Source: Enterobacteria phage vB_EcoM_IME339. Taken from it: DNA of 64,000 nt. A program made the position numbers and the translations under genes. Every line of letters starts with the position of its first letter. The stretch's first letter is position 1. The notes beneath the pieces were generated by a model. It saw only the letters and a list, made by a program, of their open reading frames with translations. It did not search any database and had not been told where the DNA came from. Below, piece after piece: positions 3,652 through 21,000 of the stretch. Where the stretch lies: the sequence record MH051915. One strand, written 5' to 3'.

Positions 3652-4209
3652 ATGCAGAAAACGAATCCGGGTTTACAGAGACTATTTCAGATTCCGACAT
3701 TTACCCTATCAAACAATGACTTGACTAGTGAAATGAAGGTCAAAATTGCTGATACAGCAAGATACTCTTTAAAACAAAATCCTAATCAGGATAAAGCAGA
3801 AGTTATCGAAAGATGCCGTATTGCGGTGTACGCAGAATTTTTTGTAGCAGATTGGCTGAGCGGGTATGTTAACAAAGGCCAAGAGGATGTTAATGACCCG
3901 TATACATATGCGTGGGATGTACTGGCGCATCCAAAATACTGTGGGCTTCGTGTAGAAGTCAAAACACATCAAACTGACTCACGTTGGATTTCGGTAACAA
4001 CTGGATGCAGTGGAGAGTATCCATACGGTTCTGGAATAAATCTAGGGCCCATTCTGAATCATCAGGTCGCTGACTGTATAATTATATTCAACACTAAAGA
4101 AATTCATCCAGGTGTCATCCAGTACACTCCGAAGTTCATCGGTGATAGAGAAGACCTTCGTAAGGTTGTAAGAAAAAGCAACTACAACGGATGGTATCTT
4201 TCCATTTAA
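3652..4209 (+). CDS. denB: endonuclease IV (dC-DNA specific)
   Basis: 185 aa, same length as T4 DenB; synteny between rIIB and ndd. Confidence 0.75.
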   Translation: MQKTNPGLQRLFQIPTFTLSNNDLTSEMKVKIADTARYSLKQNPNQDKAEVIERCRIAVYAEFFVADWLSGYVNKGQEDVNDPYTYAWDVLAHPKYCGLRVEVKTHQTDSRWISVTTGCSGEYPYGSGINLGPILNHQVADCIIIFNTKEIHPGVIQYTPKFIGDREDLRKVVRKSNYNGWYLSI

Positions 4210-4225
4210 AAATTTTCACAAAACG

Positions 4226-4256
4226 GTTTACATACCACAAGGACTGTGGTACTATA
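4226..4256 (+). promoter_or_regulatory. T4-type early promoter (GTTTAC -35, TACTAT -10)
   Basis: aaacggtttaca...gtggtactatacaactatc matches the conserved early-promoter block seen repeatedly in this window. Confidence 0.5.
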
Positions 4257-4290
4257 CAACTATCAACTGATACGGATTTGGAGAATAAAA

Positions 4291-4496
4291 TGTTTACTAC
4301 AGCTGAATTAAAACGAGCAAAAGCTAAGAAAGGGCAAGGAAAATATAAAGCTGAATTAGTTAAAGAACTTCAGTTTGCTGAGGCTGAATTGAATTCGATG
4401 ATTATTCAAAATGCTCCAGAAACTGAAATTGCTCTTAAACGTATTGCGAATAAGTGTCTTCGTGATGCAATCGTCGATCTTTTAGCGGATTATTGA
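4291..4496 (+). CDS. hypothetical protein (68 aa)
   Basis: ATG downstream of early promoter with GGAGAA SD; internal start of table ORF 4191..4496. Confidence 0.45.
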
Positions 4497-4765
4497 GTAA
4501 AATGAAATTTAAATTTTATTACGCTAAACATAAAATAACTGATGAGTTTGTGTCAGTTGAATATTCTAGCGATGATGAAGGTATGATTTATACTCGCTTG
4601 GGACTATCGCATTGGGAGTCTGATACGCCTTATTTTTCAACTCCCGAAGAAATTACACGTTTAGTTAATGGTCATATGAATGACCACTGGAATGTAATTC
4701 TTTCAGATAGTCTTAAAGCGGCTATTAATAGTAATGAAATGAAAATCGCTGAGATTGAACTATGA
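4493..4765 (+). CDS. hypothetical protein (90 aa)
   Basis: ORF with ATGA start/stop overlap to the upstream gene. Confidence 0.5.
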   Translation: MSKMKFKFYYAKHKITDEFVSVEYSSDDEGMIYTRLGLSHWESDTPYFSTPEEITRLVNGHMNDHWNVILSDSLKAAINSNEMKIAEIEL

Positions 4766-4848
4766 GTTCATTGTGGTGGTGTTTTGTTTGGTTAATTAGT
4801 ATTCCATTAATTTGTTTAGTATTTACTTTTGTGATGAGGTTATTATGA
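4762..4848 (+). CDS. micro-ORF, hydrophobic peptide (28 aa)
   Basis: MSSLWWCFVWLISIPLICLVFTFVMRLL; ATGA overlap with upstream gene. Confidence 0.35.
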   Translation: MSSLWWCFVWLISIPLICLVFTFVMRLL

Positions 4849-4943
4849 AAATTTTGAATTCTGTACTTATTGCTTGTGCATGGTGGGTTGCGCAAGTTTC
4901 AGCAGTAGTAGTTGGTATTCACATTTATTACGAATATTTTTAA
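4845..4943 (+). CDS. micro-ORF, hydrophobic peptide (32 aa)
   Basis: MKILNSVLIACAWWVAQVSAVVVGIHIYYEYF; GAGG SD upstream. Confidence 0.4.
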   Translation: MKILNSVLIACAWWVAQVSAVVVGIHIYYEYF

Positions 4944-4950
4944 AAAAGTT

Positions 4951-4980
4951 GTTTACAAGACTGTTCCTCTGTGGTATTAT
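4951..4980 (+). promoter_or_regulatory. T4-type early promoter
   Basis: gtttacaagactgttcctctgtggtattat. Confidence 0.45.
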
Positions 4981-5008
4981 TACCCTATCAACTACGGAGG
5001 AACAGAAA

Positions 5009-5122
5009 ATGAAAAAGATTGTTAAAGCTATATGGAATGTAGTTATAATACTAATAGTTTTGAGTATATTCCCAATCGTTTTAATGATTGATGTATTAAA
5101 CGCTTACTTTGGATTTATGTGA
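5009..5122 (+). CDS. micro-ORF, predicted single-pass membrane peptide (37 aa)
   Basis: GGAGG SD then ATG; MKKIVKAIWNVVIILIVLSIFPIVLMIDVLNAYFGFM. Confidence 0.45.
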   Translation: MKKIVKAIWNVVIILIVLSIFPIVLMIDVLNAYFGFM

Positions 5123-5129
5123 GGAAAAT

Positions 5130-5327
5130 ATGAAGCGTAAACGTAGTGCTTTTACATTTATGGAATGGTTTTTCGATAATATTTTTCCAGCTTTATTCAT
5201 TTTCATGCTGATTTTCGCCTTAGGTTCAGTTGTAGTTGGAATCTATTTGATGGCAGTTGTCGGAATGGATATTCACCAAAATGGTTTGAAATCTGTGGTT
5301 GAAACAATTTGGAATGGCGTAAAATGA
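5130..5327 (+). CDS. small predicted membrane protein (65 aa)
   Basis: GAGG SD then ATG; hydrophobic stretch FIFMLIFALGSVVVGIYLMAVVG. Confidence 0.45.
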   Translation: MKRKRSAFTFMEWFFDNIFPALFIFMLIFALGSVVVGIYLMAVVGMDIHQNGLKSVVETIWNGVK

Positions 5328-5434
5328 TGAATTTGCTGAGTGGTTGGTTTTATATTCTCATGTTTTACATTGGTGCAAATTTCCCATATTGGATGGGATG
5401 GTCAACAACTGCATTTGGATTTTATACTCCTTGA
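5324..5434 (+). CDS. micro-ORF, hydrophobic aromatic-rich peptide (36 aa)
   Basis: MMNLLSGWFYILMFYIGANFPYWMGWSTTAFGFYTP; ATGA overlap. Confidence 0.35.
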   Translation: MMNLLSGWFYILMFYIGANFPYWMGWSTTAFGFYTP

Positions 5435-5442
5435 GGTGAATT

Positions 5443-5658
5443 ATGAAAATTTTTAAAGATGTAAAAGTTGGTGAAATTTTCTGTTTAGATAACGGTGATC
5501 AGTTAATTCGTATTTCACCTCTTAAGAGCACTAGCGAGAAACCGACAGTTAATGCTACTTTAGCAAATAATAGTAATGAACGTTTCTGTATTGAAAATGA
5601 TACTGAAACTTATACTGTAGAAGAGTTCTGGGAATTAAGCGTCGACTGCGACGATTAA
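5443..5658 (+). CDS. hypothetical protein (71 aa)
   Basis: ORF with GAGGTG SD. Confidence 0.5.
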   Translation: MKIFKDVKVGEIFCLDNGDQLIRISPLKSTSEKPTVNATLANNSNERFCIENDTETYTVEEFWELSVDCDD

Positions 5659-5718
5659 TTTAATGGCCGTGTGTATTCATGCGGCCTTGGAGTAGAAAAT
5701 AATTTAGAGGAAATTAAT

Positions 5719-6177
5719 ATGAAATATATGACTGTTACTGATCTGAACAATGCAGGCGCTACCGTTATTGGTACAATCAAGAACGGTGAATGGCTTTTGG
5801 GAGTTCCACATAAAGATATTTTATCTAAACCTGGATTTTACTTTTTAGTAAGTAAATTAGATGGTCGTCTATTTAGTAATCCATGTGTGTCTGCACGATT
5901 TTATGTAGGTAATCAACGTTCTAAGCAAGGATTCAGCGCAGTTCTAAGTCATATTCGCCAGCGTCGGTCTCAGCTTGCGCGTACTATTGCAAATAACAAT
6001 GTTACATACACGGTATTTTATTTACCTGCTTCTAAGATGAAACCTCTGACGACGGGATTTGGTAAAGGTCAGTTAGCTTTGGCGTTTACTCGTAATCATC
6101 ATTCTGAGTATCAAACGCTTGAAGAAATGAACCGTATGTTGGCTGATAATTTTAAATTTGTTTTGCAGGCATATTAA
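5719..6177 (+). CDS. ndd: nucleoid disruption protein
   Basis: Begins [13 protein letters not shown] as T4 Ndd does (about 151 aa); GAGG SD; table ORF upstream extension begins with GTG. Confidence 0.8.
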
Positions 6178-6264: not shown

Positions 6265-6420
6265 ATGAATATTGCGAAACTATTAGGAGTTATTTCATTT
6301 ATTTGTTGGATAGTAGCATGTGTTTTAACTATCTGTATTGATGTCAGCAGCGTGTTTTCGCAAGCTTTAGCTCAGGGTATGTGTGCATATTTAACATTTG
6401 CGTTGTTATCTAATGATTAA
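6265..6420 (+). CDS. ac: small membrane protein at the ac (acridine sensitivity) locus, 51 aa
   Basis: Position between stp and 52; hydrophobic MNIAKLLGVISFICWIVACVLTICIDV... Confidence 0.6.
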   Translation: MNIAKLLGVISFICWIVACVLTICIDVSSVFSQALAQGMCAYLTFALLSND

Positions 6421-6553
6421 GAAAATCTTGGGCTACTCGGTAGCCCTTGCTATTTTATTGATAGCACTATATTATGGAGTAATGTTCGGATTAATTCAAG
6501 TCGTGCTTTTCATTTCTGATGTTATTATGGCACTACATTCACTAGTATGGTAA
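6413..6553 (+). CDS. small hydrophobic protein (46 aa) at the 52.1 position
   Basis: MIKKILGYSVALAILLIALYYGVMFGLIQVV...; overlaps ac stop. Confidence 0.45.
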   Translation: MIKKILGYSVALAILLIALYYGVMFGLIQVVLFISDVIMALHSLVW

Positions 6554-6557
6554 ATTT

Positions 6558-7886
6558 ATGCAACTGAATAATCGCGATTTAAAAAGTATCATTGATAATG
6601 AAGCACTGGCTTATGCCATGTACACGGTTGAAAATCGTGCTATTCCAAATATGATTGATGGATTTAAGCCAGTTCAACGATTTGTTATTGCTCGAGCTCT
6701 TGATTTGGCGCGAGGAAATAAAGATAAGTTTCACAAACTTGCTTCTATTGCAGGTGGTGTAGCTGACCTTGGATATCATCATGGTGAAAACTCTGCGCAA
6801 GACGCGGGGGCTTTGATGGCTAACACGTGGAATAATAACTTTCCTTTGTTAGATGGTCAAGGAAACTTTGGTTCTCGTACCGTTCAAAAAGCAGCAGCAA
6901 GTCGTTATATTTTTGCTCGTGTAAGTAAAAATTTCTATAGTGTATATAAAGATACTGAATATGCTCCGGTACATCAAGATAAAGAACACATTCCGCCTGC
7001 TTTCTATTTGCCTATTATTCCTACTGTTCTTCTTAATGGTGTTTCCGGTATTGCAACTGGTTATGCAACTTACATTCTTCCTCATAGTGTTTCTTCTGTC
7101 AAGAAAGCTGTACTGCAAGCTCTTCAAGGAAAGAAAGTAACTAAACCGAAGGTAGAATTCCCAGAATTTCGCGGTGAAGTCGTTGAAATTGACGGTCAAT
7201 ATGAAATTCGTGGAACGTACAAGTTTACTTCACGAACTCAAATGAATATCACTGAGATTCCGTATAAGTATGATCGTGAAACTTATGTGAGTAAAATCTT
7301 AGACCCGCTTGAAGATAAAGGCTTCATTACATGGGATGATGCTTGCGGTGAGCATGGTTTTGGCTTCAAAGTTAAATTCCGCAAAGAATATTCTTTGAGC
7401 GATAACGAAGAAGAACGCCATGCAAAAATCATGAAAGACTTCGGGTTGATTGAGCGTCGTTCTCAGAATATTACAGTCATCAACGAGAAAGGAAAGCTGC
7501 AAGTTTACGATAACGTAGTTGATTTAATCAAAGACTTCGTTGAAGTTCGTAAAACTTATGTCCAAAAACGAATTGATAACAAAATTAAAGAAACTGAATC
7601 AGCATTTCGTTTAGCCTTTGCCAAGGCGCATTTCATTAAGAAAGTAATTTCAGGTGAAATTGTTGTGCAGGGTAAAACTCGTAAAGAACTGACCGAAGAA
7701 CTTTCTAAAATTGAGATGTATTCTTCTTATGTTGATAAACTAGTCGGAATGAATATTTTTCATATGACTTCCGACGAAGCAAAGAAACTTGCTGAAGAAG
7801 CTAAAGCTAAGAAAGAAGAAAACGAATATTGGAAAACTACTGATGTAGTTACAGAATACACTAAAGATTTAGAGGAAATCAAATGA
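6558..7886 (+). CDS. 52: DNA topoisomerase II medium subunit (GyrA-like)
   Basis: 442 aa, same length as T4 gp52; synteny. Confidence 0.9.
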   Translation: MQLNNRDLKSIIDNEALAYAMYTVENRAIPNMIDGFKPVQRFVIARALDLARGNKDKFHKLASIAGGVADLGYHHGENSAQDAGALMANTWNNNFPLLDGQGNFGSRTVQKAAASRYIFARVSKNFYSVYKDTEYAPVHQDKEHIPPAFYLPIIPTVLLNGVSGIATGYATYILPHSVSSVKKAVLQALQGKKVTKPKVEFPEFRGEVVEIDGQYEIRGTYKFTSRTQMNITEIPYKYDRETYVSKILDPLEDKGFITWDDACGEHGFGFKVKFRKEYSLSDNEEERHAKIMKDFGLIERRSQNITVINEKGKLQVYDNVVDLIKDFVEVRKTYVQKRIDNKIKETESAFRLAFAKAHFIKKVISGEIVVQGKTRKELTEELSKIEMYSSYVDKLVGMNIFHMTSDEAKKLAEEAKAKKEENEYWKTTDVVTEYTKDLEEIK

Positions 7887-8032
7887 GTCCATTCATTGGT
7901 ATTACAAGCGCAGCATTAGTATCTGGTAGCATTTTACTGGCGGGTTTAGGTGTTGTTCCAGCCGTAGCAGGAGGTCTTCTTGCGTTCGGCATTCAACGTG
8001 TTATTATGACAGTTATCACTGTCATGCAGTAA
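7883..8032 (+). CDS. small hydrophobic peptide (49 aa)
   Basis: ATG overlaps gene 52 stop; MSPFIGITSAALVSGSILLAGLGVVPAVAGGLLAFGIQRVIMTVITVMQ; followed by terminator. Confidence 0.4.
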   Translation: MSPFIGITSAALVSGSILLAGLGVVPAVAGGLLAFGIQRVIMTVITVMQ

Positions 8033-18093: not shown

Positions 18094-21000
18094 TTATTCA
18101 ACCCATTCAAATTTAACAGATTTATTCACTGGGTCAGGAATAATGCGAACATTACCAATTCGCAAGAAATCACGAATAGTAAGATTCCCCATTGTAGCAT
18201 TATCAGATGGTAAAGCACCAATATCAGATGGTTGTGGAGGGTTACCTCCGTCAAATACCTGAACAAAACTTGACCAAGAGTTTTTGGTTTTCTGCCATGT
18301 ACGTGTCCAGCGAGTGGTACGCGCTTCTGGAGTCGTTGGATAAGTAATCCAATCTTGGTAAAGCGAATCAAGTGTGTTACCAAATTGAGTCAATGTACCA
18401 GGAGATTTAACCTCTTCTCCACGTTCTAAGTATGGAAGTCCAGTCACTTCATTAGTTTTTTCAACCATTTTAAAATAACCTGGGAACTGGTTATAAGTAG
18501 CTGAATCATTAATGTCAATTGACCAGAATCCTACAGTATCAGATGTTGGCGCACGGGTGTATAGGTCAGCAGTTTTAGTGCCCTGAGAACGAATTCTCGA
18601 GTTAACAGTTAAACCACCTGAATTTATAGTAGCACCTTTGGCAATGATTAAGCTTTCACCAATCGTTACTTGACCAGATGCATTATTAATAGATAAAGGA
18701 CGTAATCCATTAAATCCGCCAGTCTGATCACCCGATGCAGTGAGCATAAAATATGTGCTGCCGCCATCATTCCTGATAAAGAATCCATAATTACCACTTA
18801 TTGCTCTAAAAGCATTCGATGATTTGCTGATGAATTCACCATTAGCAGTAACTGAACTACCAAATGTTGCAACGCCGTTCGCGTTCAAAGAACCCGAAGC
18901 ATTGACATTTATCGGCATCACAGTACCATTGATACTAAACGTTATATTCCCAGCTTTATTACGTTGAGAATAAAAGTGATTAGACGTTTCATCACCAACT
19001 TCAAATACAGTAGAACGTGTTGTATCTGAACCGCCGCCAAACTGATTTCCCCAAACTCTGATAGTCATCGTCTGTACTGGGTTAGTTCCAGTTTGAGGTC
19101 CTTTCTCAAAAATCAGACGAGTTGCCGTTCCAGTATTAGAAATAGTTAATGTACTATTTGCCGAAACTGATCCACCAAACGTAGCAGTACTAGATGATAC
19201 AAGAGGGGCATTCAGATTCGTTTGTTGGGTTAAGGTTAGTGAACCATTAACCGTCTGTGCAATATCCCTACGAATGAACTGAGATGAATCTAGACCATCT
19301 AATAAATTCGCGTCAGCAGCTTTTGCTTTTAACGGCAAATAATTTGCTAATACACGGTTTAATTCATATGGTGATACTGCATAGCTATTTTTCTCGTATA
19401 GCTCTAAGCTCTGTGTAGAACCAACTGTATCATTACCAACGAATGTAATTGAACCAGATGAAGTTTTAACAAAGCCTCTTATTGCAGTAGTAGCTGCCCA
19501 AGTAGGTTCACTCTGCACAATCCATTTTAAATTTTTTGGAGATACAGCAGTATTTGCTGACGTTCCAGCCACAGTTTCAGACTGAGTCGCAACTTTAATA
19601 ACACCTTCCTGTGCTTCAGTAGATTTAGTACCTAAAAGCTTTTTAGGAGTTATTAAAACATTATCCAATGTTCCTGCAGCAGCTTCAACTTGTGTAGCTA
19701 CACGAAGTGTACCACGCTGTGTCTCATTTGCTTCAAGAATATTAAGGGTATAATGGTCCCAGAGAGTTCCTGATTCAACTAATCCAGATAGAGCAACAAC
19801 AGAAGTACGATCAGTACTATTAAATCTGGTTTTAATTTTTAATGGTGTAGAGATACGAGTATCGTCGACGCCTGCGTCGAATTCAACTTGCGTAGCAATT
19901 TCAGCTATACCACTTAAACTTTCAGTTGCTATACGGTCATTTAAAGTTTTAGGAGTGACTGCACGAGTATAATCAGTTCCTGTATTAACTTCACTTTGTG
20001 TAGCAATTTCAATTAAACCAATTCTTGCATCAGTTGATGTCTTTTTATGTAACGTTTCTGGCGTTACAACAGCATTTGCCCATCCTTCTTGACTCTGTCC
20101 AGCAATTACTTCACTTTCAACTGCTAAAATTACTGCACCTTGTTGCGTTGGAGTAGCTTTATACTGATCCAAAGCTTTAGGCGAAACGACTAAATTATTA
20201 GTGTTTTTATTATAAACGTTTGTACCATTTAATTCACGACTAGAAGCTGGAGTAGCTCCTGTAGTAGATACAAAAGTTACAATACCAGATAATGACTCAG
20301 AACCTTGTCGAGCTTGAAGCTTTTTAGGAGTGATGATTGTAGTATCATCAGTACCTGCATTAGTTTCCTGCTGCGTAGCAATTTCAGCAACACCTCTACG
20401 AGTTTCTGTAGCAGTTCTTTCATTCAGCTTTTTAGGAGTGATGATAATATCGTCAGCAAAAGAGAATGTAGTGTTCTGATTCACTTGAGCAGTAGTTGCT
20501 ATTCTTGCGATACCTCTACGAGTTTCTGTAGCAGTACGGTTAGCTAATGTTTCTGGAGTAATTGCTAATTCTTTTTGTGGAGAATTTTCTAAATCAGCAT
20601 TAGCTTGAGCTTGTGTAGCTAAAGCAATTACGCCTAATCTTGCTCTAGTAGAATCATTTAAAGAATCAACTCTTTCTACAGTTGGAACGTTTTGCTGTAC
20701 AACCCAGTATTTTCCGTCAGAATCTTCTATATAAGCAAGTTGTAAAACTGGAACATAATTAGTTTCACCGTTAAAAACTAATTCTTGAACAGTTACCCAT
20801 TCAGCTTCAGGCGGATATTCTGAACGTTTTGGGAACTGCAGCAATTGAACTGAAGAAGCAATTTTATCTTCACCGGCAGCTTTGATTTTAACTGTTTGTC
20901 CTTTTCTCATGTAATTCATGGAAATTTTAACAGTATCACCAACAGAAATATTAGTTGGAAGCTGGAGTTCAATTGTTTGAGTTATTCCATTATTCGCTCC

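Follow-up and report, generated by a model that had tools for sequence, protein, structure and literature searches.

Between denB and ndd, in a non-essential region of the bacteriophage T4 genome, lies a series of very small genes, ndd.6 to ndd.2 (T4p275–T4p270), all of which the T4 reference describes as hypothetical predicted membrane proteins. The T4 deletion sa-delta-9, which spans 52.1 through denB and includes ndd.1–6, is viable with 50% of the wild-type yield, and it abolishes the post-infection rise in phospholipid and phosphatidylglycerol (PG) synthesis; with the partly overlapping deletion rII-delta-DD2, the PG-specific stimulation is lost (PMC6071114). Earlier work, as summarised in that paper, indicates that the lipid effect needs protein made within 5 min (PMC6071114). 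In a genome-wide dCas13d knock-down (CRISPRi-ART), ndd.1 to ndd.6 were all scored "Not Fit", with no fitness effect on laboratory E. coli (PMC11879866). In the literature we searched, no paper treats the Ndd.2–6 peptides individually, and there is nothing on DUF7248 (the Pfam family of one of them) or on the ndd–denB interval; Petrov et al. (2010) gives nothing specific on this interval. Here we analyse the corresponding five open reading frames (ORFs) in a stretch of 64,000 nucleotides from Enterobacteria phage vB_EcoM_IME339 (record MH051915), the whole of which we call the window.

By sequence identity, the window is Tequatrovirus DNA: 507 phage records match the 1.5 kb that surround the micro-ORFs at 80–99% identity, the top match being Escherichia phage BYEP01 (98.7%), and the five-ORF block is 95% identical to T4 in DNA. 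It runs in the orientation opposite to the standard T4 map, with the order denB (3652–4209), orf68, orf87, the five micro-ORFs, ndd.1, ndd, stp, ac, 52.1 and gene 52. The gene order and the flanks (denB on one side; ndd.1, ndd, stp, ac, 52.1 and 52 on the other) are shared with T4, and in four of the five families the peptides are 92–100% identical to those of T4, Ndd.5 being identical and Ndd.6 agreeing at 26 of 28 residues. In a PHROG scan every peptide matches its own family over the full length (E 5e-16 to 6e-30). The position of ndd.6 also agrees: it lies on the same strand, 3' of denB and 5' of ndd, and its first codon overlaps an upstream stop codon. The T4 reference names the five ORFs ndd.6, ndd.5, ndd.4, ndd.3+ndd.2a and ndd.2, and comparable annotations exist in RB14 and ime09.

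Three differences from T4 stand beside this likeness. The window phage has two added genes, orf68 and orf87, between denB and ndd.6, where T4 has only an 8-codon remnant; its ndd.2a is a single 65-residue ORF, which a 1-nt deletion divides into "ndd.3" and "ndd.2a" in the T4 reference; and the T4 record places the start of ndd.4 five codons further upstream, at an ATG peculiar to T4. Judged by identity and position, the five ORFs are long-annotated T4 genes, already known and named, and what is new here is confined to annotation corrections and a comparative description. All five lie where the sequence-only reading had placed them (Table 1), the last having been read from 5324 to 5434 as a 36-residue form. 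The same reading held that automated annotation usually misses such peptides, which is true in part: several records omit some of them, and homologues of ndd.6 that start with TTG are left unannotated, but T4 names all five, and PHROG and Pfam families exist.

Table 1. Positions of the five micro-ORFs, their promoters and neighbouring genes in the window (aa, amino acids).
Feature	Position	Strand	Product or form	T4 locus tag	PHROG family and match	Context
ndd.6	4762–4848	+	28-aa hydrophobic peptide	T4p275	phrog_8851, E 4.8e-16, residues 1–28 on profile 1–28 of 28	
ndd.5	4845–4943	+	32-aa peptide; GAGG Shine–Dalgarno sequence	T4p274	phrog_5011, E 3.6e-26, 1–32 of 32	directly after ndd.6
ndd.4	5009–5122	+	37 aa; basic N-terminus MKKIVK, one predicted transmembrane segment	T4p273	phrog_3098, E 3.9e-21, full-length profile match	
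ndd.2a, full-length	5130–5327	+	65 aa		phrog_2401	spans "ndd.3" and "ndd.2a" of the T4 reference
ndd.2	5327–5434	+	35 aa; uncharged, aromatic-rich (34% Trp/Phe/Tyr)	T4p270	phrog_4135, E 1.7e-24, full-length	between ndd.2a and ndd.1
Internal early-type promoter	4952–4980	+	TTTACA-17-TG-TATTAT			heads ndd.4-ndd.2a-ndd.2-ndd.1(-ndd)
Early-type promoter-like site	4227–4255	+	TTTACA-17-TG-TACTAT			heads orf68-orf87-ndd.6-ndd.5
orf68	4290–4496	+	RB32ORF266c-type soluble 68-aa protein		phrog_4535	homologue in VR26; not in T4
orf87	4502–4765	+	RB69ORF270c-type acidic 87-aa protein; pN/pS 0.14		phrog_2390	not in T4
ndd.1	5443–5658	+	soluble acidic 71-aa protein, not a membrane peptide		phrog_2183	follows ndd.2 in its unit
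ndd	5719–6177	+	nucleoid disruption protein			downstream border of the cluster

We consider the five to be almost certainly real genes, whose translation we infer. Across 15 Tequatrovirus genomes the peptides hardly vary, although DNA identity over the block is about 95%, and the variable alignment columns of the five ORFs fall at codon positions 1, 2 and 3 in the proportion 16:8:47 (2:0:7 for ndd.5 and 3:3:22 for ndd.2a). The ratio of nonsynonymous to synonymous variation (pN/pS) within the genus is 0.14–0.17 for ndd.6, 0.04–0.05 for ndd.5, 0.09–0.10 for ndd.2a and 0.14–0.15 for ndd.2. In the other sense frames the ratio is near 1 or higher; the antisense frame that shares third positions mirrors the low ratios, and the antisense ORF over ndd.6 is closed in AnYang. 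For the neighbours in the same genomes, pN/pS is 0.04 (denB), 0.11 (ndd), 0.09 (ndd.1), 0.07 (stp), 0.08 (ac) and 0.24 (52.1). By this comparison the micro-ORFs are constrained as strongly as proven genes. Between genera the corresponding ratio of substitution rates (dN/dS) is 0.12–0.3, with synonymous sites saturated.

We also searched 50,697 phage records with the peptides by tblastn, counting an ORF as intact where a single-frame match covered at least 80% of it. Coverage of this extent was found in 653 of the 666 records matched by ndd.6, all 489 matched by ndd.5 (every one at least 90% identical), all 599 matched by ndd.4, 496 of the 499 matched by the 65-residue ndd.2a and 514 of the 517 matched by ndd.2, to which about 25 Klebsiella phages at 46–49% identity are added. 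Each ORF is thus intact in 97–100% of the records that carry it. The peptides are under purifying selection and conserved among relatives, and because of the codon-position bias together with these single-frame matches we regard their conservation as beyond chance.

The expression signals described by the sequence-only reading (three GAGG-type ribosome-binding sites, stop/start overlaps between neighbours and an internal early promoter) can all be found. Shine–Dalgarno (SD) sequences lie at 4836–4839 (GAGG, second ORF), 4996–5000 (GGAGG, third) and 5121–5125 (GAGGA, fourth), and the overlaps are ATGA at 4762–4765, ATGA at 4845–4848 and ATGATG at 5324–5329. The two ORFs with no SD, ndd.6 and ndd.2, have a stop/start overlap instead: the ATGA at 4762–4765 joins the orf87 stop to the ndd.6 start, and the start of ndd.2 overlaps the stop of ndd.2a (TGATG or TAATG). 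The internal promoter is the top sigma-70-like match in its 3-kb surroundings, and its position and form are kept in Tequatro-, Gapriver-, Dhaka-, Kanagawa- and Marfavirus, as GT[T/G/A]TACA, a spacer of about 17 nt and a TG-extended TAnnAT, followed by an SD. The upstream site is kept in T4, and AnYang, HX01 and IME523 show its GTTTACA...TAnnAT arrangement 5' of their orf87 homologues too. The early promoters all point in the sense direction. In a dual-omics study of T4, ndd.2, 2a, 3, 4, 5 and 6 are early transcripts (PMC9697503, Table S2), and the ndd and ndd.1 products were seen as early proteins (PMC9697503).

The region 5' of ndd.6 takes three configurations among relatives, with both orf68 and orf87, with orf87 alone, or with neither. 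T4 retains there a promoter, an SD and an 8-codon mini-ORF, MKIAEIEL, which ends in an ATGA overlap with ndd.6 and consists of the orf68 start codon fused to the final seven codons of orf87 (the equivalent of window positions 4227–4765). Homologues of orf87 lie directly 5' of ndd.6 in VR7, VR26, AnYang and HX01. The unannotated, TTG-starting homologues of ndd.6 occur in VR7 and VR26 (Gaprivervirus; 2395–2478 of the extracted locus in each), AnYang (Dhakavirus; 2375–2464) and IME523 (Kanagawavirus; 2381–2467), and those of VR7, VR26 and AnYang overlap the stop codon of the orf87-type ORF that precedes them. Since the overlap with an upstream stop is preserved, even by the T4 mini-ORF, ndd.6 is probably translated by termination–reinitiation, and its retention suggests selection for translational coupling.

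Each of the five products is probably a single-pass inner-membrane microprotein. The sequence-only reading had given every one of them a single predicted transmembrane (TM) helix; this is upheld for four, with 19-residue Kyte–Doolittle maxima of 2.2–3.1, and Ndd.2 is a borderline case at 1.17. The basic N-termini of Ndd.5, Ndd.4 and Ndd.2a predict an N-in/C-out topology. Conserved motifs are MSSxxWCxxWxLSIPxIC in Ndd.6, KAIWN...VLSIFPIVxMID in Ndd.4 and GWx7GxNxPYWxGW in Ndd.2, and the mid-helix proline motifs, SIP in Ndd.6 and SIFP in Ndd.4, are invariant. The conservation of Ndd.4 runs contiguously along residues 17–28 and is not confined to one helical face.

The full-length Ndd.2a has a basic N-terminus (MKRKR), a TM segment and a conserved C-terminal NGLKSVVxxIWNGxK, and matches Pfam DUF7248 (PF23906) at 73.4 bits (gathering cutoff 27), with residues 5–63 on profile positions 3–57 of 58. 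AlphaFold2, run on a shallow alignment, gives a pLDDT of 78, with a helix over residues 5–17, a break at the conserved NIFP and a continuous helix over residues 19–64, and so predicts a single-pass helix with a helical extension rather than a hairpin. In Shigella phage Sf25, gp120 (MF327009, about 90626–90718) is an in-frame fusion of Ndd.4(1–31) to Ndd.2a(35–65), 62 residues in all, labelled with PF26889 and PF23906. If functional, this fusion, seen in one genome, suggests that Ndd.4 and Ndd.2a share a topology and that the C-terminal tail is a separable module. The Ndd.4 family PF26889 is met only as the precomputed label on this fusion and is absent from our local Pfam scan.

We rejected hydrophobicity as evidence of function, since it is insufficient against the window-wide baseline: 20 of the 126 same-strand ATG ORFs of 25–70 residues in the window (16%) are equally hydrophobic, and these are mostly out-of-frame artefacts of the T-rich strand. 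Five of the baseline ORFs pass both a hydrophobicity and an SD filter, four of them annotated genes. The other is a 48-residue ATG-ORF with an SD-like sequence at 20333–20479 (+), which was matched to no annotated gene and may lie out of frame inside a larger gene.

Residues 8–11 of Ndd.5 (L-I-A-C), read from the sequence, fit the lipobox consensus, with a putative signal of only 10 residues; known lipoprotein signals are longer than this. Lipoprotein processing of Ndd.5 seems unlikely, and the motif may explain why it has been labelled "outer membrane protein". A lipobox-like I-V-A-C is also present at residues 16–19 of Ac.

The comparison corrects several annotations. Over 1,873 nt, the T4 reference (NC_000866.4, 166432–166628) differs from resequenced T4 (OZ035787) by one missing G, in codon 2 of the 65-residue ORF (ATGAAGCG becoming ATGAACG). 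This 1-nt loss yields the annotated "ndd.3" (26 residues) and a shortened "ndd.2a" (40 residues), and three other T4 records have the intact 65 residues; ndd.3 is listed as a PHROG singleton (PMC11879866). On this evidence "ndd.3" is no gene but results from a sequencing error or a mutation of the stock, and it should be merged into the 65-residue ndd.2a. The start conserved among relatives also departs from that of the T4 record, both for ndd.4 and for ndd.2. For ndd.2 the conserved start is the second ATG (5327); the ATG at 5324 is not conserved, and because it is ATA in a common haplotype we assigned the start to 5327. Some product names are unfounded: "naphthalene 1,2-dioxygenase" on ndd.4, "outer membrane protein" or "periplasmic protein" on these hydrophobic peptides of 28–65 residues, and, where ndd.2 lies in T6 and ndd.2a in ZCEC14, "chaperone for long tail fiber formation" and "DnaB-like helicase | tail fibers protein" respectively.

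The selection of micro-ORFs in the denB–ndd interval differs genus by genus. Our comparison was built on GenBank phage records because an IMG/VR search with Ndd yielded just six loci. Gaprivervirus has orf87, ndd.6, ndd.4, ndd.2a and ndd.1, and Dhakavirus has orf87, ndd.6, ndd.4 and ndd.1, without ndd.2a. The Mosigvirus HX01 has orf87, ndd.6 and ndd.1, carries an unrelated 36-residue hydrophobic ORF in the place of ndd.5, and is without ndd.4, ndd.2a and ndd.2. Kanagawavirus has ndd.6, ndd.4 and an ndd.2-like ORF, Marfavirus (a Klebsiella phage) has an ndd.4-like ORF and ndd.2, and in one distant relative denB directly adjoins ndd with no micro-ORFs between them. In tblastn, ndd.5 is restricted to Tequatrovirus (all its matching records), and for the other four, diverged homologues occupy the corresponding place in further genera of the Tevenvirinae, four such genera in the case of ndd.6. 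By this distribution ndd.4 and ndd.6 are the most widely conserved of the five.

We rejected paralogy between any of the five peptides, Ac, 52.1, MotA.1 and the 36-residue HX01 product, no pair being significant against shuffles (best z 2.6 over 36 tests). Because no pairwise similarity exists and presence and absence vary independently between genera, the five are, on sequence grounds, unrelated families in a mosaic accessory cluster, neither a duplicated cassette nor an obligate complex, and the notion of a single module does not stand. Searches further afield brought no functional lead, placed none of the five in a characterised family and found no kin of theirs beyond the T4-like phages. 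Pfam and NCBIfam at E <= 0.1, including holins, type I toxins, AcrZ and MgrB, gave no match for any of the five save DUF7248. A word-indexed search with the 65-residue protein found 7 close relatives, and an exhaustive phmmer search of 1.84 billion representatives gave five matches, two of them full-length (a 76-residue homologue and the Sf25 fusion) and the remainder fragmentary or spurious, with no relatives outside T4-like phages and no bacterial lead. Emp/Gp94 of Mosigvirus AV110 (bioRxiv 10.64898/2026.09.14.751387), a 109-residue alpha/beta protein encoded beside motA, was considered and found unrelated to the five peptides; the Emp screen took only T4 early proteins detected in the proteome, and thus excluded Ndd.2–6 (bioRxiv 10.64898/2026.09.14.751387).

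With some reserve, we lean towards a reading in which each of the five is a single-pass inner-membrane microprotein that works independently and has a conditional influence on envelope physiology. The two conserved early promoters would drive transcription in the first minutes of infection, ndd.5, ndd.4 and ndd.2a would be translated from their own SD sites, and ndd.6 and ndd.2 by termination–reinitiation. Each product would insert into the host inner membrane as a separate hydrophobic-helix microprotein, acting singly and not in a complex, and its conserved helix, with the mid-helix proline (SIP or SIFP) and aromatic periplasmic ends, would pack against a host inner-membrane protein. The outcome would be a retuning of envelope physiology (lipid synthesis, permeability) that matters only for some hosts or conditions. 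That the peptides are independent modulators of host membrane proteins, with a putative host target, is the part that we put forward only tentatively.

Several observations weigh against this reading. The deletion behind the lipid phenotype of sa-delta-9 spans about 3.4 kb and takes out denB, ndd, ndd.1, stp, ac and 52.1 as well, so that the phenotype does not point to the peptides specifically; localisation, topology and host partner are all predictions, and Ndd.2 may be interfacial rather than membrane-spanning. Liquid chromatography–mass spectrometry left Ndd.2–6 undetected in T4, though stp and ac, both proven genetically, likewise escaped it, and P39249 (Ndd.4, 5 kDa) is given by the authors as an example of a protein below the detectable size (PMC9697503). 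Sporadic lesions in relatives show that individual members can be lost: a GG insertion lengthens ndd.6 to 83 residues (IMG/VR 2974742932), a 12-nt deletion takes out the ndd.2 start (ECP52) and a +1 T shifts the frame of ndd.2 (slur04). These lesions were aligned to window positions 4798–4850 and 5324–5380, in an alignment that does not tell sequencing error from true mutation; a 55-bp tandem duplication at the ndd.6/ndd.5 junction (101112UKE3-1) leaves both ORFs intact.

Lastly, ndd.4 within Tequatrovirus has a pN/pS of about 2, on just six variable columns. Its synonymous variation there is near nil (pS 0.009, compared with 0.08–0.2 in the neighbours), and it is the sole part of the block that blastn finds in other genera. 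Between genera its pS is 0.45–0.94, its pN 0.08–0.40 and its dN/dS 0.12–0.18. We rejected an RNA-level constraint, given that Rfam offers only a sub-threshold potC match (20.5 bits, gathering 44), the mRNA fold has z = -1.6 and the between-genus dN/dS is normal. The outlier is probably a small-number effect or the result of a recent recombinational sweep.

Superinfection exclusion, modulation of host transporters or membrane sensors, and anti-defence, the candidate functions named by the sequence-only reading, stand as hypotheses. Among the more specific explanations, the PG phenotype provides the best lead, though it is weakly mapped. Here at least one of the peptides would be the specific determinant of the stimulation of PG synthesis by T4 (or of altered acridine permeability), acting on an inner-membrane enzyme of host phospholipid synthesis or of the envelope. 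Such a role would accord with the loss of stimulation in both sa-delta-9 and rII-delta-DD2 and with the need for a protein made within 5 min (PMC6071114); the peptides are early and predicted to lie in the membrane, the site of PG and phosphatidylethanolamine synthesis, and the neighbouring ac encodes a hydrophobic protein of 51 residues with a genetically defined acridine phenotype. However, the resolution is that of an entire deletion of at least 11 genes, the mutant strains bore further lesions (PMC6071114, legend to Figure 9), the source does not state where rII-delta-DD2 ends with respect to the ndd.x genes (PMC6071114), an older study (Merlie, as cited in PMC6071114) disagreed on PG stimulation, and Pfam and NCBIfam scans show no similarity to lipid-metabolism proteins. 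We think this explanation unlikely.

The chances are similarly small that the peptides counter membrane-associated abortive-infection systems, or mask their triggers, as the neighbouring rIIA/rIIB counter RexAB. The neighbourhood is full of host-conflict genes (rIIB, denB, stp, ndd), and a mosaic, genus-specific repertoire with conditional dispensability is typical of arms-race genes. Set against this, the peptides are near-invariant in Tequatrovirus, unlike many diversifying anti-defence genes. We did obtain one match in PADLOC, of Ndd.4 to a TM segment of KwaA (Kiwa; PDLC00208, E 0.008, 13.8 bits), which none of 10 shuffles reproduced; but four divergent homologues of Ndd.4 lack it, as does the variant of T4 itself, which differs by two conservative substitutions, and the other four peptides have no PADLOC match. 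Since it is not reproduced across the Ndd.4 family, we rejected a KwaA-like identity as a chance match. We give the same low probability to a combined proposal, that one microprotein (Ndd.4 and Ndd.6 being the most conserved candidates) binds a host inner-membrane enzyme through its proline-containing helix and is the determinant that redirects synthesis to PG, or else neutralises a membrane-embedded defence sensor. If either were true, it would define a new class of phage-encoded single-helix effector.

Slightly less likely again is superinfection exclusion, in which the peptides would block the DNA entry or envelope penetration of a secondary phage, like Imm and Sp of T4. Early small membrane proteins in an accessory region would suit such a role, and dispensability in single-phage laboratory assays is what it predicts. 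Yet imm and sp already account genetically for T4 exclusion, most of the peptides have next to nothing in the periplasm that could meet an incoming phage, and the only families recovered with PHROG, Pfam and NCBIfam are those of the peptides themselves, with no similarity to Imm, Sp or any exclusion family.

We give still less credence to membrane-active peptides of a viroporin-like or type-I-toxin-like kind, which would form oligomers that depolarise the inner membrane or make it permeable, and so contribute to host shut-off or to the timing of lysis. In size and hydrophobicity they are like small hydrophobic toxins, the contiguous conservation of Ndd.4 could fit self-packing, and Kutter et al. 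note that small early genes of T4, once cloned, are in many cases lethal to the host. But Pfam and NCBIfam show no match to holins or to toxins of the Hok, Ldr, TisB or Ibs type, t, rI and rIII explain T4 lysis timing, and phage fitness is unchanged on knock-down (PMC11879866).

Finally, it is highly improbable that some or all of the ORFs are non-functional, as chance ORFs of a T-rich stretch (the block is 40.6% T, compared with 31.6% in the window), or that translation itself is what matters, by keeping ribosomes on the early mRNA and avoiding polarity on ndd: the window-wide hydrophobic baseline, the undetected peptides, the tolerated frameshifts and the two ORFs with no SD fit this idea, but it is largely refuted by amino-acid conservation as strong as that of denB, ndd and stp, with the peptides recognisable across genera in which synonymous sites are saturated, the antisense frame over ndd.6 closed in AnYang, and no RNA family or unusually stable structure over the block by Rfam and folding.

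The reading that we prefer, of independent membrane microproteins with conditional effects on the envelope, carries little weight as a discovery, given that the genes have stood in the T4 annotation for decades and have PHROG and Pfam identifiers. Its interest lies in that these near-universal Tequatrovirus early microproteins, constrained like denB and ndd, fall within the sole T4 deletion known to abolish the phospholipid change, which turns five peptides into a short, testable list of candidates for the old question of phospholipid synthesis.

Two further observations concern the surroundings of the cluster. A small G+C-rich stem-loop (GGCCG...CGGCC) with no T-run, which a terminator scan did not flag, lies at 5665–5686 between the ndd.1 stop and the SD of ndd, and could be a processing or stability element. 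On the same strand, ac, 52.1 and motA.1 (6265–6420, 6413–6553 and 7883–8032) are also tiny hydrophobic ORFs, which would bring the number of single-helix microproteins to eight in about 3.3 kb.

Of the known proteins with which the five can be compared, T4 Ac (51 residues) and gp52.1 (46 residues) are the nearest in place: both are very small, hydrophobic early products of genes on the same strand, 0.8–1.1 kb downstream, with similar hydropathy and constraint, although neither has a detectable sequence relationship to any of the five. Ac indicates, by its annotation, that such a protein in this region can carry a genetically defined envelope-permeability phenotype. Imm, Sp and RI of T4 are likewise small phage membrane proteins dispensable in simple laboratory infections, but they are larger (about 83–97 residues), have functional periplasmic or multi-TM parts and show no sequence similarity to the five. 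A further comparison is with AcrZ, MgrB, MgtS, phiX174 E and levivirus M Lys, single-helix proteins of 30–90 residues that bind polytopic inner-membrane proteins through their TM helix, some of these regulators and lysis proteins requiring a mid-helix proline. The five have no Pfam or NCBIfam match to these families, and the relation would be one of analogy rather than membership. As an analogy, it offers a possible mode of action for the five, with the mid-helix motifs SIP of Ndd.6 and SIFP of Ndd.4 as the points of likeness.

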